Shown one piece after another: positions 13,804 to 20,569 of a stretch of 64,000 bases of DNA. The notes beneath the pieces are model-generated. The model worked only from the letters and a program-made list of their open reading frames with translations, made no database searches and was not told the DNA's origin. Position numbers and translations under genes: made by a program. Source of the DNA: Flavobacteriales bacterium 33_180_T64 (lineage in GTDB: Bacteria; Bacteroidota; Bacteroidia; Flavobacteriales; Flavobacteriaceae); the NCBI GenBank assembly GCA_002162685.1, contig MAAQ01000023.1, positions 4,259 to 68,258 of the forward strand, in the 5' to 3' direction. The first letter of the stretch is position 1, and every line of letters begins with the position of its first letter.

Positions 13804-14553
13804 ATGAGGAAAAATATTGTTGCAGGAAACTGGAAAATGAATAATGATTTATCAAAAACAGCAGCTTTACTATCAGATTTAAAGGAGCAAACAAAAACAT
13901 CTAATGCTGAGGTAATGATTGCACCAACGTTTACAAATCTTTGGCATGCTTTTGAAGCTACAAGACATGATGATATTGAAGTTATTGCACAAAATATGCA
14001 TTTCGCTGAAAATGGTGCTTATACAGGAGAAGTGAATGCAAGTATGCTAAAAAGTATTGGAATTCAAACTGTAATTTTAGGTCATAGTGAACGTCGTGCT
14101 TATTATAACGAAACAGATGAATCTCTTGCTAAAAAAGTAGATACAGCATTAGCTAATGATATGCGTATTATTTTCTGTTTTGGAGAAGAATTAGCAGATC
14201 GTAAGTCTGGAAATGAAGAAACTATAGTTGAAAATCAAATTAAAAAGGCTTTATTTCATTTAGAAGCTTCAGCTTTCAAAAATATAGTTTTGGCTTATGA
14301 GCCAGTTTGGGCTATTGGAACAGGAGAAACTGCAAGCCCTGAGCAAGCACAAGATATGCATGCTTTTATTAGAAAAACTTTAGAAGGTAAATATGGGCAT
14401 ACAGTAGCCGATGATATGACTATTCTCTATGGTGGAAGTGTAAAACCAGGTAATGCTAAAGAAATTTTTTCAAAACCTGATGTAGATGGTGGCTTAATAG
14501 GTGGTGCAGCTCTTAATGCTGAAAATTTTTATGCCATTGTTAATGCGTTTTAA
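13804..14553 (+). CDS. tpiA: Triosephosphate isomerase
   Basis: AGNWKMN, GHSERR, AYEPVWAIGTG, LYGGSV. Confidence 0.98.
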   Translation: MRKNIVAGNWKMNNDLSKTAALLSDLKEQTKTSNAEVMIAPTFTNLWHAFEATRHDDIEVIAQNMHFAENGAYTGEVNASMLKSIGIQTVILGHSERRAYYNETDESLAKKVDTALANDMRIIFCFGEELADRKSGNEETIVENQIKKALFHLEASAFKNIVLAYEPVWAIGTGETASPEQAQDMHAFIRKTLEGKYGHTVADDMTILYGGSVKPGNAKEIFSKPDVDGGLIGGAALNAENFYAIVNAF

Positions 14554-14580
14554 ATAGCGTATTAATTCTATTAATATATC

Positions 14581-14623
14581 TAAGGGTATTCACTGAGTTT
14601 TTGGAATTCAGTGAATACCCTTA
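14581..14623 (+). terminator. Long hairpin terminator after tpiA
   Basis: TAAGGGTATTCACTGA...TCAGTGAATACCCTTA inverted repeat followed by a T-rich tract. Confidence 0.75.
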
Positions 14624-14689
14624 GTCTTTTTTATAACTATGAATCTAACTTGCAATTGATTATTAATCAGTTAATTTAAATTCAGGTTT

Positions 14690-15415
14690 ATGAAGAATCA
14701 AGAACAAATTCTAATACAGCATATTGTATATAGATTATTTACAAAACATGCTTTTAGCGAAGATCTTTTAGGTAAAAGTGATTTAGCAATTAATAAAAAA
14801 ACTTTAAATATTAAAACTATCCTTACCACAGTTTTAATGATGTGCTTAGTGACATTCATAGTAAATAGTCAAACTTTAAAAGTAACAGGTGGTGTAAACT
14901 TAATGCATCTAAATACAGCATTAGAATCACCGATGGGAGAAACCCCTACAGATACAGATACAGATTTGCCTACGAGGTCAATGTTTGTAAGTAGCAATGA
15001 ACTGTTATTAGCATCTGGAAAAAATACGAATAACGAATCAGGCTTTTATTTAGGGTTAGCGCTTAGTGATATTACATTATTTAATAATATTGATTTGCAG
15101 CCCGAAGTAAGATTTGTAGGTGTTAAAGACTTTAATCAAATTCAGGTACCAGTGTTATTAAATTATGGTATTACTGAAAAATTTCATGCTTTCGCAGGTC
15201 CCAATTTTGCATTCTTATTAGATGCAGGAGATAGTGTCAAGTCATTCAATTTTGCTCTAGATTTTGGAGCGTCTTATAATATTTCAGATAAAATTGCCTT
15301 AGATGCGAGATACGATTGGGGACAAACCAATCTTTTAAAAAATGGGGATAGCAATAATTATATAAAAATAAACAATATTCAATTTGGTATTGTTTATCGT
15401 TTTGGAACTAATTAG
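14690..15415 (+). CDS. Outer-membrane beta-barrel (porin family) protein; true start probably near 14810-14837
   Basis: Alternating beta-strand pattern LQPEVRF, GPNFAFL, DARYDWG and terminal IQFGIVYRF. The signal-peptide-like stretch begins at I41. Confidence 0.75.
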   Translation: MKNQEQILIQHIVYRLFTKHAFSEDLLGKSDLAINKKTLNIKTILTTVLMMCLVTFIVNSQTLKVTGGVNLMHLNTALESPMGETPTDTDTDLPTRSMFVSSNELLLASGKNTNNESGFYLGLALSDITLFNNIDLQPEVRFVGVKDFNQIQVPVLLNYGITEKFHAFAGPNFAFLLDAGDSVKSFNFALDFGASYNISDKIALDARYDWGQTNLLKNGDSNNYIKINNIQFGIVYRFGTN

Positions 15416-15432
15416 ACTTTAAGAACGAAGAG

Positions 15433-16458
15433 ATGAAAACTTTAAAACAATTTCTATTTTTTATTACGGTTGCATGTTTTTATATAAATGCTTTTGGACA
15501 ATGTGCAACACCTCCTGCTGATATGGTAAGTTGGTGGACAGGAGATTCTAATACTCTAGATCTTATTGGAACTAATGACGGCACCCAATTAAATGGAATT
15601 AACTATGTCTCAGGAATGGTGAGTGATGCCTTTTTATTTGATGGTATTGACGATCTCATTTTAGTTCCAGATAGTGCAAACTTAGATTTAACTGGTGACA
15701 TGACTTTGATGACTTGGGTAAGACGAATAGGCTATGATAACCAACATCAAGTGGTTCTTTGTAAAGGAGCAGGCTATGTGCCAAATGATGAGTCTGCTGT
15801 TTTTTTAATGCGATTTGAGTTTGATTTAACCGAGTTTCTATTTGAAGATATCAATGGAAATAATATAATTATAAATGGACCAGCATTTGAAGATTCTATG
15901 TATCATCATTATGTATATGTTCGCGAAGGAAATGAGCATAGACTATATGTTGATGGGTTTTTGTTTAATAATGAAACATTCTCTTCAAATCCAGCGAGTA
16001 CTTTAGGCTTACCTCTAACTATTGGAGCGCAATATCATAATCCGACAAATTCTCCAAATGATTATGATTTCAATTTTAATGGTGAAGTAGATGAGATCAT
16101 GGTATACAATAGAGCTTTATCAATATCCGAAATGCAAAGTGTATACAATTCAGGAACTTCTGGTGTATGCAAAGATGGACTTAGTGTTAATGATTTTAGT
16201 CTTGTTGAACGTATAAGTTTATATCCTAATCCAACACGAGGTTTAATTATATTTAAATTAAATGCACAATTGCTTACTAGTTATAGAAATTTAGAACTTT
16301 CTATAATGGACTTAACAGGTCGAATTGTTTGTAGCAATGTAGAATTACAAACTGAAACCAAAGTAGATATCTCAACATTATCTAACGGAATGTATTTGTA
16401 TACTATACGTGGTGAAAACAGAGTTTTAAAGTCTGGTCAATTAATTAAAAAGAGATAA
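15433..16458 (+). CDS. LamG-like jellyroll protein with T9SS type A C-terminal domain
   Basis: Signal peptide, LamG motifs (YHHYVY, LYVDG, FNGEVDEIMVYNRAL), CTD LYPNP...GMYL...LIKK. Confidence 0.85.
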   Translation: MKTLKQFLFFITVACFYINAFGQCATPPADMVSWWTGDSNTLDLIGTNDGTQLNGINYVSGMVSDAFLFDGIDDLILVPDSANLDLTGDMTLMTWVRRIGYDNQHQVVLCKGAGYVPNDESAVFLMRFEFDLTEFLFEDINGNNIIINGPAFEDSMYHHYVYVREGNEHRLYVDGFLFNNETFSSNPASTLGLPLTIGAQYHNPTNSPNDYDFNFNGEVDEIMVYNRALSISEMQSVYNSGTSGVCKDGLSVNDFSLVERISLYPNPTRGLIIFKLNAQLLTSYRNLELSIMDLTGRIVCSNVELQTETKVDISTLSNGMYLYTIRGENRVLKSGQLIKKR

Positions 16459-16570
16459 GAGTTTTGTTACTGTTTTTCTTCTATTTTATTGTTAAACAAA
16501 AGGGACAACCACACCATGCTAAAGAAAGATTAAGAATTATTATTAAATTAGAGGACAAATCCTCATTATT

Positions 16571-18508
16571 TTGAAAAACATAACGCTTTTGTTTTTACTG
16601 GTTACTTCAACTCTTTTTGCGCAACAACAAAAAGAGATTGATAGTATGTATCAAGTGGTAAAAGGAAGCTATAATGATACTATTAAAGGAAATACACATT
16701 ATGAGCTCGCTTGGGCTCTAAAGTTAAAAGATTTACCAGTTGCAAAAGCACATATGGATTCTGCAATGTTAGTTTATCAAGAATTAAAACTGCCTCGAAA
16801 GACTGCTCTTGGTAATTTTCAATATTCAGTGTTGTATCGAATTTCAGGAGATTATAATAAGGCTATTGAGAGCTTGACTAAATATCAAGATTATGTAGAG
16901 AAGGTTAAGGATACTGCGAATTTAACTTATGCTTATTATGAAAAAGGAGTCATATATTCTCAAAAAGGGGATTTACAAACAAGTTTAGAAGAGTTTTATA
17001 AGGCGAATACTTTAGCAGAAGCGATCAATAATTTAGAGATGTCTAGTATGTCTTTAAATAGCATTGGTGTGGTTTATAATGATTTAGGTAAGTATGAGGA
17101 AGCGATTGATGCTTTTCAAAAGGTTTTAGTGATTTATAAGAAACAAAATGTAACTGGTGAGTTTCTAGGAGATACATACAATGGTTTAGCGTCTTCATAT
17201 AAGTATCAAAATAAATATAATGAAGCTGAGGAATATTTTGATAAAGCATTAAAGAATTATAAAGCATCAAATAGTGATTTTGGAGTTTCAATAGCGAATT
17301 TTAATAAGGGTTTGATTTATAATAAGCAGAAACAATTTGAAAAAGCATTAGCATTTTTTAAAAGAGCATATGACATTCAGAAAAAAAATGAGTTTGATTC
17401 AGAATTAGTATTGACCATATCTAGTTTTGCCGAGGCGAATTTTGAATTAGGCAATTATTCTAAAAGTGAATTGCTTTTAGATGAAGGATTAAATCTTGAT
17501 ATTGAAAATAAATTATCTGCAAAAGATCTTTATTTTGAATTATATCGCGTTAATGAGATAAAAAATAATTATCAAAAAGCGCTCAGGTATCATAAAACTT
17601 ATACAAAATATAAGGATAGCATTTATAGTAAAGAAAATATTAAATCCATAAATCTTCTTCAAAAGCAGTTCGAAACCGAAAAAAAAGATAAAGCTATTCT
17701 TAGGCAGCAATTAGCACTAGAACGGAAAGACAATCAAATTAAAAACAAAAGCAATCAAATGAATTTATTATATGGTTTGCTATTTTTTCTGATTGTATTC
17801 TCCATTTTAGGATGGCTAGTATTTCAGCAAAAACAAAAACGAAAAAATTTAGAGTTAGTAACACTAAAAAGAGAATCTCAAGTAAAATCATTAGAAGCAC
17901 TTATTAAAGGTGAGGAGAAGGAGCGTTTTAGAATCGCTAAAGAGTTACATGATGGTGTCAATGGTGATTTATCTGCTATAAAATATAAACTGTCGTCACT
18001 TTTGGAGATGAATAATAAAGTGATTAAAGAGGCTATAACCATGATTGATAACTCTTGTGAACACGTGCGAGCTATTTCACATAATTTAGTACCACCTTCA
18101 TTAGAAAATTTTAATTTAGTTGAAGCAACAGAAAATTACTGTCATGATTTAGATGTCGTAAATCATCAGAAAATCACATTTCAATATTTAGGTAGCACAA
18201 TCAAGTTATCTAAGAATACTGAGGTAAATACATTTCGAATTATTCAAGAATTAGTTACAAATGCCCTAAAACATGCGGATGCTAGTGAGATTAATGTACA
18301 GATAAGTCATAGAGATAATGTGATTCAAATTACTATTGAAGACAATGGAAAAGGGTTTGATAGAAATGCCATTAAAACTGATGGTATTGGATTAAATAAC
18401 ATTCAGTCTAGAGTAGATTATTTGAATGCGACATTAGATTTTATCTCTAATCCTAATGGAACCTCATATACTATTGACATAGACTTAAATACATTAAATG
18501 ATAACTAA
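16571..18508 (+). CDS. TPR-containing sensor histidine kinase (HisKA_3 type)
   Basis: Periplasmic TPR repeats, one TM helix, RIAKELHDGV H-box, QELVTNALKHA, DNGKGF, GIGL. Confidence 0.92.
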   Translation: MKNITLLFLLVTSTLFAQQQKEIDSMYQVVKGSYNDTIKGNTHYELAWALKLKDLPVAKAHMDSAMLVYQELKLPRKTALGNFQYSVLYRISGDYNKAIESLTKYQDYVEKVKDTANLTYAYYEKGVIYSQKGDLQTSLEEFYKANTLAEAINNLEMSSMSLNSIGVVYNDLGKYEEAIDAFQKVLVIYKKQNVTGEFLGDTYNGLASSYKYQNKYNEAEEYFDKALKNYKASNSDFGVSIANFNKGLIYNKQKQFEKALAFFKRAYDIQKKNEFDSELVLTISSFAEANFELGNYSKSELLLDEGLNLDIENKLSAKDLYFELYRVNEIKNNYQKALRYHKTYTKYKDSIYSKENIKSINLLQKQFETEKKDKAILRQQLALERKDNQIKNKSNQMNLLYGLLFFLIVFSILGWLVFQQKQKRKNLELVTLKRESQVKSLEALIKGEEKERFRIAKELHDGVNGDLSAIKYKLSSLLEMNNKVIKEAITMIDNSCEHVRAISHNLVPPSLENFNLVEATENYCHDLDVVNHQKITFQYLGSTIKLSKNTEVNTFRIIQELVTNALKHADASEINVQISHRDNVIQITIEDNGKGFDRNAIKTDGIGLNNIQSRVDYLNATLDFISNPNGTSYTIDIDLNTLNDN

Positions 18509-19133
18509 AATAGCAATTACAGATGATCACGTAATGGTGCTTAGAGGCATCGAAACCATGTTAGAAAACACCCCAGAAATAACTGTGGTGGCGACTTATA
18601 CAAATGCTCAAGACACAATTAACGGGTTAGTCAATGTTGTTCCAGATGTTTTATTATTAGATATCAATTTGCCAGATATTAATGGTATTGATTTAAGTAA
18701 ACAACTTCTTAAACAGTATCCTGAACTTAAAATTATTGCGCTAACCAATTTTGATGATTTGTCTTTTGTAAAACGAATGATGAAAAATGGAGTTCATGGG
18801 TATTTACTTAAAAACACCGATAAAATTGAACTTGTATTTGCACTTAAAACGGTATTGTTAGGAGAATTATATATTCAAAAAAGTATTAATAACAGACTCA
18901 TTAATCAAAATACATCCAAGCCATTAGATAATGGTTTAAATATTAAGTTAACGCGCAGAGAACATGATGTTTTAGTTGGGATTTCAGAAGAACTTACAAC
19001 ACAGCAAATTTCAGAAAAACTATTCATTAGCCCAAAAACTGTCGAAACCCATCGGATGAATATTATGAGTAAACTAGGCGCAAAAAATAGCGTTGGTATT
19101 ATTAAAATAGCGATAGAAAGACAATTATTGTAA
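18498..19133 (+). CDS. NarL/LuxR-family response regulator
   Basis: TDDH, LLDINLPD, GYLLK receiver domain plus LTRRE...SPKTVETHR HTH. Confidence 0.94.
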   Translation: MITKIAITDDHVMVLRGIETMLENTPEITVVATYTNAQDTINGLVNVVPDVLLLDINLPDINGIDLSKQLLKQYPELKIIALTNFDDLSFVKRMMKNGVHGYLLKNTDKIELVFALKTVLLGELYIQKSINNRLINQNTSKPLDNGLNIKLTRREHDVLVGISEELTTQQISEKLFISPKTVETHRMNIMSKLGAKNSVGIIKIAIERQLL

Positions 19134-19296
19134 GTACTAACATTTGCTTTATTAAATAGGTTGATTCTTTAATCTTGGTTATTAAGGGAAAATGAAAAAT
19201 TAAATACGCTGTTTATAATACGAATCGGGAATAAATGACAATCTTTAGGGGAAAATTGATATTTAATGTTCTGATTAAATTAAAGAGATTTGCATC

Positions 19297-19403
19297 TCAT
19301 TAATTTGTTTTTTTAATTGATGTATATATGATTACAAACGATTAATAGCTTAATTGTTGTAATAACCTTAGATTTAGGCTCTCTTTAATTAGAGAGCTTT
19401 TTT
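19297..19403 (+). ncRNA. Candidate sRNA, copy 1 (5' end approximate)
   Basis: Hairpin 19331-19363 plus terminator 19376-19403. No ORF longer than a few codons. Structure is shared with copy 2. Confidence 0.45.
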
Positions 19404-19505
19404 GTTTGTTTCTATTATGGTTTATAATAAGAGTCGGGAATAATTTACAATTTTAAGGGAACAATTTATATTTAGTATTCTGATTTAATTACAGAAATTT
19501 ATAGT

Positions 19506-19620
19506 TCATTAATTTAACTTTTTAAGTTGATGTCGGTTATATAACTACAATCAAACTAATGGCATTTTTTTTATTGTAGATACCTGAATTTTAAGCTCTC
19601 TTTAATTAGGGAGCTTAATT
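19506..19620 (+). ncRNA. Candidate sRNA, copy 2 (5' end approximate)
   Basis: Hairpin 19545-19579 with a compensatory C-G pair, plus terminator stem 19593-19616. Confidence 0.4.
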
Positions 19621-19732
19621 ATTTTACTCAATTCCTTGCGCTATAGTTTAGAACGAAAACCTATAGATTAAACAGGTATATAACAGTAGTTTGATAAAAT
19701 TACATGTAACTTTGCAGCATAAAATTGATGAC

Positions 19733-20569
19733 ATGTCAAATATAATTTATTTAGGATATTACTTTAATGTGCAACCGCTACAACCAGCAGTAGAAATCCT
19801 AATTGCCGAGCTAGGTTATGCAGGTTTTGAAAGTTTTGTAGAAACTGAAGATGGAGTGACAGCTTATATTCAAAAGGAAGAATGGCATGCTAATATTTTA
19901 GAAGATATATATATATTAAATTCTGATGAATTTGAAATTACTTATACTTCTGAGGAGATAGAACAAACCAATTGGAACAAAGAATGGGAAAAGAATTTTA
20001 ATTCCATTATTGTAGATGGGATATGTTCTGTTCGTGCACCTTTTCATGACAAACCAAACACGGACTTTGATATTGTTATAGAACCAAAAATGAGTTTTGG
20101 TACTGGTCATCATGAAACTACACATATGATGATTCAGCATATTTTAAAAAATGATTTTAAGAATAAATCAGTTTTAGATATGGGTTGCGGAACAGGTGTT
20201 TTAGCTATTCTTACTGAAATGAAAGGCGCTAAGCCAATTGATGCTATCGATTATGATAATTGGTGCTACCTTAATAGTATTGAAAATGTAGAACGAAATA
20301 ATAGTCAGAATATTACTGTTTTAGAAGGTGATGCAAGTTTGTTGCTAGGAAAGCAATATGATATTGTTATCGCTAATATTAATAGAAATATTTTGCTGAA
20401 TGATATGGGAACTTATACTAAAACATTGAATGAGAATGGTGTTTTGTTTTTAAGTGGATTTTATAACAGCGATATACCAATCATTGAAGCCGAATGTAAT
20501 AAATTCAACTTAAAACACGTTGAAACTTTAGAAAGAAATAATTGGGTCGCTTTAAAATTTGAAAAATAA
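19733..20569 (+). CDS. prmA: Ribosomal protein L11 methyltransferase
   Basis: NWNKEW, PKMSFGTGHHETT, LDMGCGTG, ANINRN. ATG 19733 is preferred because TAACTTTG (19707-19714) lies upstream. Confidence 0.95.
   Translation: MSNIIYLGYYFNVQPLQPAVEILIAELGYAGFESFVETEDGVTAYIQKEEWHANILEDIYILNSDEFEITYTSEEIEQTNWNKEWEKNFNSIIVDGICSVRAPFHDKPNTDFDIVIEPKMSFGTGHHETTHMMIQHILKNDFKNKSVLDMGCGTGVLAILTEMKGAKPIDAIDYDNWCYLNSIENVERNNSQNITVLEGDASLLLGKQYDIVIANINRNILLNDMGTYTKTLNENGVLFLSGFYNSDIPIIEAECNKFNLKHVETLERNNWVALKFEK

Follow-up and report, generated by a model that had tools for sequence, protein, structure and literature searches.

Two non-coding repeats are located between a response regulator gene and prmA in Flavobacteriales bacterium 33_180_T64 (MAAQ01000023.1). 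Their position raises the question of whether they are genes for small RNAs (sRNAs) and, if so, whether they are controlled by the two-component system next to them. Coordinates given without a locus handle are positions in the window, which is the whole 64,000-nt stretch of DNA that was analysed, and the features are collected in Table 1.

Architecture and predicted folding of the units

The gap between the regulator gene (ending at 19133) and prmA (ATG at 19733) is 599 bp long with 25 % G+C and holds two units arranged head to tail with a period of 209 bp. The units are 80 % identical over the first 106 nt and 76 % identical over about 197 nt, and the tandem duplication reported in a preliminary description of this DNA (49 of 60 positions identical between 19211-19270 and 19420-19479) was reproduced exactly. 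With copy 1 as the query against the whole genome, copy 2 was retrieved at E = 3.6e-32 and therefore the repeat is far beyond chance. Tandem Repeats Finder detected no repeat because the copies are too diverged, whereas alignment and BLAST did detect the duplication. The same description saw no real ORF in the units, and indeed no ORF of at least 20 aa was found to be common to both copies. A 22-codon ORF (MTIFRGKLIFNVLIKLKRFASH, 19235-19303) crosses the upstream module in copy 1 only; at the corresponding place in copy 2 the start codon is missing and a stop occurs. We also noticed that residues 19685-19704 (AGTAGTTTGATAAAATTACA), just 5' of the prmA -7 box, are 80 % identical to the matching stretch of units 1 and 2 and keep the period of about 210 bp, like a partial third repeat that is statistically indistinguishable from AT-rich background.

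Table 1. Location of the features in the window
Feature	Position	Strand	Description
Probable operator and promoter of the OMP_b-brl-LamG(T9SS)-kinase-regulator operon	14581-14653	+	TAAGGGTATTCACTGA, 11 nt, TCAGTGAATACCCTTA, 29 nt, TAACTTGC (14646-14653)
TPR-HisKA_3 histidine kinase	16571-18508	+	Kinase of the same operon
Response regulator	18498-19133	+	Receiver and GerE/LuxR HTH domains; no terminator of its own before unit 1
Unit 1 (copy 1)	19211-19419	+	5' module, -7-like box, three hairpins, terminator; R1 score of 3' module 98.3 bits
Copy 1 GGGAA direct repeats	19227-19231 and 19249-19253	+	About 63 and 41 nt 5' of TTGC in the -7-like box
Copy 1 -7-like box	19285-19292	+	GAGATTTG; aligns with the perfect TAnnTTTG box TACGTTTG of C16b
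Copy 1 hairpin H1	19298-19322	+	CAUUAAUU / AAUUGAUG; predicted fold; register not conserved in C16b
Copy 1 hairpin H2	19331-19363	+	AUUACAA...UUGUAAU, 14 bp; predicted fold
Copy 1 terminator H3	19376-19408	+	GGCUCUCU-UUAAUU-AGAGAGCU plus U-run; stem 19376-19399; -12.7 kcal/mol
Unit 2 (copy 2)	19420-19625	+	76-80 % identity to unit 1; R1 score 84.1 bits
Copy 2 GGGAA direct repeats	19436-19461	+	Boxes at 19436 and 19457
Copy 2 -7-like box	19494-19501	+	GAAATTTA, weak
Copy 2 hairpin H1	19507-19532	+	11 bp; predicted fold
Copy 2 hairpin H2	19545-19579	+	CUACAAU...AUUGUAG; predicted fold
Copy 2 terminator H3	19591-19628	+	U-run interrupted (UUAAUUAUUUU); stem 19591-19618; -14.6 kcal/mol
prmA -7 box	19707-19714	+	TAACTTTG; score 42 against a null maximum of 29; prmA starts at 19733

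Each unit is closed at its 3' end by a Rho-independent terminator on one strand, with stems of -11 to -15 kcal/mol followed by U-runs, and the U-tract of copy 2 is poor. Three terminator-like sites were observed where 0.3 were expected. The exchange of U-A for C-G that had been proposed as a compensatory change in hairpin H2 (ATTACAA/TTGTAAT in copy 1, CTACAAT/ATTGTAG in copy 2) is present, as is the A-U to G-U change in the terminator stem. Folding from the inferred starts gives an identical H1-H2-H3 layout in both window copies, and H1 of unit 2 carries an 8-nt insertion relative to unit 1. All four copies in the genome (the other two, C16a and C16b, are described below) are more stable than their shuffles, with z-scores of -3.6 and -3.6 for the window copies and -5.1 and -2.9 for the remaining copies. 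Five stem cells form G-U pairs that would become C-A on the opposite strand, and therefore only the (+) strand fits; the terminators are likewise predicted to function on this strand only. Among five sequences, which include a copy from the congener G018, 90 % of the cells pair against 40-51 % with slid partners, and compensatory changes occur in three pairs, a result that 8 of 500 shuffles equal. With five sequences only, we regard this covariation as supportive but thin. H1 could not be aligned across the copies and the register of H2 shifts between C16a and G018.

The micro-ORFs of the preliminary description (MYI* at 19320 and MSVI* at 19530) are both present, as is every other sequence feature that it listed, and all five copies have an ATG that falls into one alignment column (19320-19322, 19530-19532, L009 5093-5095, L009 5341-5343 and, for G018, L026). 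If this ATG started a translated micro-ORF, the units could be leader-peptide attenuators, and the C16a and G018 copies do contain six-codon ORFs (MYTTNF and MYTTSF). This is scarcely credible, however, as the ORFs are 3, 4, 8, 6 and 6 codons long with different stops, the residues that they have in common derive from conserved H2 stem nucleotides, and three of the five terminators have no co-directional gene downstream. The ATG lies within the 3' arm of H1 in both window copies and in C16a, which probably explains its conservation.

Copies 1, 2 and C16b, which we call type 1, have an upstream module of about 85 bp in common that contains two GGGAA boxes and TTCTGATT. The boxes are paired as had been described, with a spacing of 21-22 bp (19227 with 19248/9 in copy 1, 19436 with 19457 in copy 2); the repeats are retained in copy 2 and weakened in C16b. 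As a regulon motif, the module was found genome-wide to be confined to the three type-1 units. C16a belongs to a second type and has only the core in common with the type-1 units.

The -7 consensus and its location at positions -12 to -5 are known from earlier work (PMC9723704). C16b lies after another terminator and has its perfect TAnnTTTG box about 100 nt ahead of its own terminator. The boxes of the window copies had been called non-consensus and this holds for both, since copy 1 matches TAnnTTTG at 7 of 8 positions (5 of the 6 specified bases) and copy 2 at 6 of 8 (4 of 6). The chance rate of TAnnTTTG is about 0.8 per kb per strand, and no recognisable -33 element was found ahead of the units. 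From the copy 1 box, transcription would start at about 19297-19299. Derivation of the unit promoters from the prmA promoter was considered and rejected, the scores of 16-18 being not significant against a null 95th percentile of 20.

A start further upstream would make the whole 209-bp unit an RNA of about 195 nt, with the GGGAA region as RNA closed by the helix AAUCGGGAA / UUCUGAUU. All three type-1 copies show this helix when the 5' module is folded by itself (minimum free energy), copy 1 and C16b show it in the full-length folds as well, and it varies by G-U-compatible changes only (AAUCGGGAA, AGUCGGGAA and AAUCAGAAUG against UUCUGAUU, UUCUGAUU and CGUUUUGAUU). It shows no double compensatory change, however, and the 5' module alone has no extra stability compared with shuffles (z = -1.0, +2.1 and -1.5). 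Furthermore, no -7 box was found 5' of copy 1 and the C16a/G018 type is without the 5' module. We consider the longer RNA very unlikely.

Distribution and insertion of the family

A covariance model, R1, was built on the 3' module (H2, linker and terminator). Exactly four copies were found in the 3.75-Mb genome at 74-98 bits, followed by the next match at 29.6 bits. The four copies form two tandem pairs, namely the window pair and C16a/C16b on contig C16, and the paralogous copies are 69-80 % identical. Sibling genes are at least two homologous non-coding units in one genome, and here there are four with no ORF in common.

Within the genus the family is present in 2 of the 39 species, this one and G018, and the closest relatives are without copies. 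The G018 copy comprises the core of about 115 nt and was detected at 46.6 bits with the model and at E = 1.4e-23 in the DNA search. It is identical to C16a at 98 of 117 positions (84 %) and the similarity ends at the unit edges, the contexts of the two copies being unrelated. Conservation between them starts about 20 nt ahead of H1, and the upstream module is absent from this type. The G018 copy is convergent to tRNA-Pro and tRNA-Arg genes and has no co-directional gene upstream, and therefore its terminator can serve only its own transcript. The 4-fold degenerate sites of prmA are saturated between the two species (25 of 66 identical), so the conserved core points to either purifying selection or recent transfer. 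By PrmA identity (79 %), G018 ranks with the congeners furthest from this species, and the family is missing from the closest ones, so that a recent transfer is a real possibility. The pattern of 2 in 39 species would fit mobile or dispensable DNA as well as it fits a regulator.

Covariance-model and DNA searches of the 39 congeners and of 400 family genomes (302 genera) returned only G018, the other weak matches being generic terminators; as scoring in these genome-wide searches is limited to the top candidates of an initial filter, strongly diverged copies could escape. A comparison with Rfam had been proposed in the preliminary description, and no Rfam 15 family was matched: JA04 reached 21.9 bits against a gathering score of 81 and suhB 16.4 bits against one of 41, and both of these best hits cover the terminator only, with E above 4. 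The other copies returned nothing from Rfam except tRNAs. BLAST against phage and plasmid collections gave no match. An IUPAC pattern for four of the copies, scanned over genome, metagenome and viral collections, gave three chance matches in unrelated phyla and also matched the C16 locus itself and one metagenome contig (L072).

In 5 congeners the orthologous regulator gene and prmA are separated by 35-75 bp, with only the prmA -7 box inside the gap, and in 8 other genera by 33-44 bp. All 13 of these loci, with gaps of 33-75 bp, are without a unit, and no copy near regulator-prmA loci was detected when the genus was searched with covariance models. The prmA -7 box is ancestral, with TATCTTTG / TAACTTTA as its counterparts in congeners. 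At the C16 locus (a DUF6923/TPR-protein locus), the congeners are without the RNA-like pair as well as the HNH and lipoprotein genes beside it, and a filter-free model search of the syntenic gaps of 17 congeners found no copy. By this comparison of loci, the window pair and the C16 pair are both lineage-specific insertions. The C16 pair faces a convergent gene and adjoins no two-component system.

Two further features of these loci were observed. Upstream of the RNA-like pair, the C16 locus (L009 3641-4960; G000:C16:334641-335960) carries both a free-standing HNH/NUMOD4 homing-endonuclease gene of 182 aa and a gene for a 240-aa lipoprotein with no Pfam, PHROG or PADLOC match. The interval between tpiA and prmA (13804-19733 in the window; loci L040-L068) is variable: at least 16 congeners have tpiA and prmA about 110-140 bp apart, and the OMP-LamG-kinase-regulator operon lies between them in just six species of the genus, counting this one. 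The linkage of the regulator gene with prmA recurs in 8 other genera despite the rarity of the operon in the genus.

The insertions would also be consistent with a selfish or neutral promoter-terminator cassette that was copied or transferred into gaps and has no regulatory role in the host. The distribution is patchy with a distant second carrier, the three loci are all non-syntenic and lineage-specific, and the C16 and G018 copies adjoin a homing-endonuclease gene absent from congeners and two tRNA genes, respectively. The 84 % identity across saturated species could also mean recent transfer and not selection. Furthermore, the window insert is flanked by AAAATTAAAT / AAAATTACAT, of which the nearest relative, G011, has a single copy. 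This flanking repeat is weak, however, being a match of 10-11 nt that scores above the 95th but below the 99th percentile of the null and is thus marginal. Against selfish DNA we also count the presence of four copies only, the absence of terminal inverted repeats, the absence of a nearby transposase or integrase and the lack of any similar sequence in the phage, plasmid, viral, metagenome or genome collections searched. Paralogs at 69-80 % identity nevertheless keep their stems through wobble and compensatory changes. We therefore consider such a cassette unlikely. A MITE or REP-type repeat was rejected because the four copies occupy two loci, lack terminal inverted repeats and show a marginal flanking repeat at best, and the mobile-element collections gave no match.

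Candidate sibling sRNA genes

We favour, at somewhat better than even chances, the reading of the units as young and narrowly distributed paralogous sibling sRNA genes with predicted transcripts of about 105-120 nt. The sibling part of the claim in the preliminary description is retained as the best reading, based on z-scores of -3.6 in both window copies, wobbles that fit the (+) strand, three compensatory pairs and a core that is 84 % identical across species, while activation by the neighbouring regulator is not retained. Each unit would have its own promoter at the -7-type box, which is perfect in C16b (TACGTTTG) and less so in copy 1 (GAGATTTG) and copy 2 (GAAATTTA). A type-1 unit would then be composed, in order, of the module of about 85 bp, the -7-type box, a variable H1, a conserved H2 (A[C/U]UACAA / UUGUA[G/A]U), the linker AACCUUAG and the terminator (GCUCUCU...AGAGAGC plus U-run). 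The type-1 upstream module may bind some regulator, not identifiably the neighbour, and the RNAs would act in trans by base pairing. No shared single-stranded seed was found across the copies, and a search for targets with complementarity of at least 13 nt gave AT-rich noise, with the best match (17 nt) inside a coding region. This lineage alone received the window pair, which was placed downstream of the regulator gene and upstream of the prmA promoter; since two terminators now part prmA from the kinase-regulator operon, this insertion rewires the locus.

The sibling genes might in addition have spread as a unit. In this version the core of about 115 nt (H1-H2-H3), running from promoter to terminator, would be an sRNA gene cassette that moves horizontally between distant congeners without a mobility protein, lands in intergenic gaps (by tRNAs, a homing endonuclease or prmA), gains differing upstream control modules and amplifies in tandem. 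We regard this version as rather doubtful.

The units could instead act mainly in cis. Unit 1 would then close the kinase-regulator operon as its 3' UTR and terminator and might be a source of a 3'-UTR-derived RNA, and the pair of terminators would insulate prmA. The terminator at 19376-19399 is the first one after the regulator gene, relatives have the regulator gene and prmA 33-75 bp apart without a terminator, and prmA retains its ancestral -7 box 3' of the insert. CpxQ, an sRNA made from the 3' UTR of cpxP, is a known case of this kind, and unit 1 resembles it in its place immediately behind the final gene of a two-component operon, where it supplies the first terminator. However, the explanation as a 3' UTR cannot apply to unit 2, C16b or the G018 copy, and promoter-like boxes are found ahead of the hairpins. 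The cis reading also leaves the second unit, the C16 pair facing a convergent gene and the orphan G018 copy unexplained, and a plain terminator needs neither conserved H1 and H2 hairpins nor an upstream module. It is therefore improbable as the main function.

Characterised sRNAs are few in Flavobacteriaceae, and the RNA biology of the group is without the classical Hfq and Shine-Dalgarno logic. Sibling sRNAs elsewhere include the tandem array LhrC1-4 of Listeria, which is under the LisRK two-component system, PrrF1/PrrF2 of Pseudomonas and the Neisseria siblings, all of which are conserved across a species or genus and have defined seeds. The units resemble these in the tandem duplication of an sRNA gene of about 100 nt with a promoter-like region and a terminator in each copy, but differ in their presence in 2 of 39 congeners and in having no evident shared seed. 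If transcribed, the units would add a young lineage-restricted sRNA family to Flavobacteriaceae, and one that captures the birth and spread of sRNA genes through insertion, tandem duplication and exchange of upstream regions.

From the same bacterial family, the Rfp11, 13, 15 and 18 sRNAs of Flavobacterium psychrophilum are independent, strongly folded, terminator-ending RNAs with TAnnTTTG promoters (PMC9723704). The candidate units are likewise strongly folded and terminator-ending with TAnnTTTG-like boxes, but no homology was detected with the covariance model, which found nothing among 400 genomes from 302 genera of the family.

The neighbouring two-component system and its operator

OmrA and OmrB of enterobacteria are adjacent sibling sRNAs that are activated by EnvZ-OmpR. 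The preliminary description had the neighbouring NarL-type regulator bind the GGGAA direct repeats and activate both units, which would parallel the action of OmpR. We examined this through the operator of the regulator itself. Orthologues and paralogues of the kinase were taken from 300 family genomes, and a common architecture was observed beside related two-component systems in 8 genera: two 16-bp palindromes with the consensus TCAGGGTATACCCTGA, 26-27 bp apart, followed after about 29 nt (28-31 as extracted, depending on box spacing) by the TTGC of a TAnnTTGY-type box. The loci listed with this layout are L120, L123, L124, L128, L129, L130 and L132. The TAnnTTGY-type -7 box is the SM5 variant (PMC9723704).

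A position weight matrix made from 15 operator boxes was scanned over this genome. The two best matches, at 14581-14596 and 14608-14623, score 20.5 bits each, are 27 bp apart and form the only box pair in the genome. They lie ahead of the regulator's own operon, whose first gene has its ATG at 14690, and from this conserved co-location the site at 14581-14653 is the probable operator and promoter of that operon. Just after tpiA, the paired boxes also make up a 17-bp hairpin with a T-run behind it, and therefore the operator site might serve as the tpiA terminator as well.

When 19200-19640 was scanned with the same matrix, no 16-mer above 2 bits was found. The GGGAA boxes are without the CCC half and their spacing is 21-22 bp as against 26-27 bp; moreover, no conserved GGGAA repeat was found in the upstream region of the kinase itself. 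C16b has the same upstream module far from any two-component system, and adjacency to the regulator is unique to this lineage, the gap being short in the 5 congeners and 8 genera. In favour of the regulator, the units adjoin its gene and three copies keep the GGGAA boxes with constant spacing, box 1 lying 63 nt before TTGC. The control regions of the regulator family itself show a similar distance of 65 nt, and GGGAAT is like the operator left half TCAGGGAAT. In addition, the same regulator-prmA gap in G094 gained another gene behind a genuine operator pair, so targets of the regulator can settle at this spot. Since the link rests on an adjacency that arose from a single recent insertion, we rate control by the regulator as quite unlikely, and the activation claim is not upheld. 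With OmrA/OmrB the units have in common two adjacent paralogous terminator-capped genes, similar upstream regions and the idea of two-component control. They differ from them in having no sequence or Rfam relationship, in the absence of the regulator's probable operator and in a two-component adjacency that is not conserved. As no terminator separates the regulator gene from unit 1, this unit may nevertheless share a transcript with the regulator's operon, which presumably regulates itself. Adjacency alone is misleading here, and the comparison yields a testable operator for a widespread family of TPR kinases and LuxR-type regulators.

Other insertions were observed beside orthologous regulators. 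In G094 (L123 4030-4730), the gap between the regulator gene and prmA holds a genuine operator pair, a TAAATTGC box and a gene for a lipoprotein of about 170 aa, which is likely to be a direct target of the orthologous regulator. In L129 (G090), an ORF of about 95 aa is found 3' of the regulator gene, adjoining an operator pair and bracketed by direct repeats of about 110 bp (…TTTGTCACTTCGAGTGAATTTTTGAGGCACGA…). By eye we take this ORF to resemble a GIY-YIG-type nuclease, and together with its repeats it looks like a small mobile insertion. Finally, about eight CAATTT / CAACTT hexamer repeats were noticed in L124 (G262), about 50 nt ahead of the operator box.
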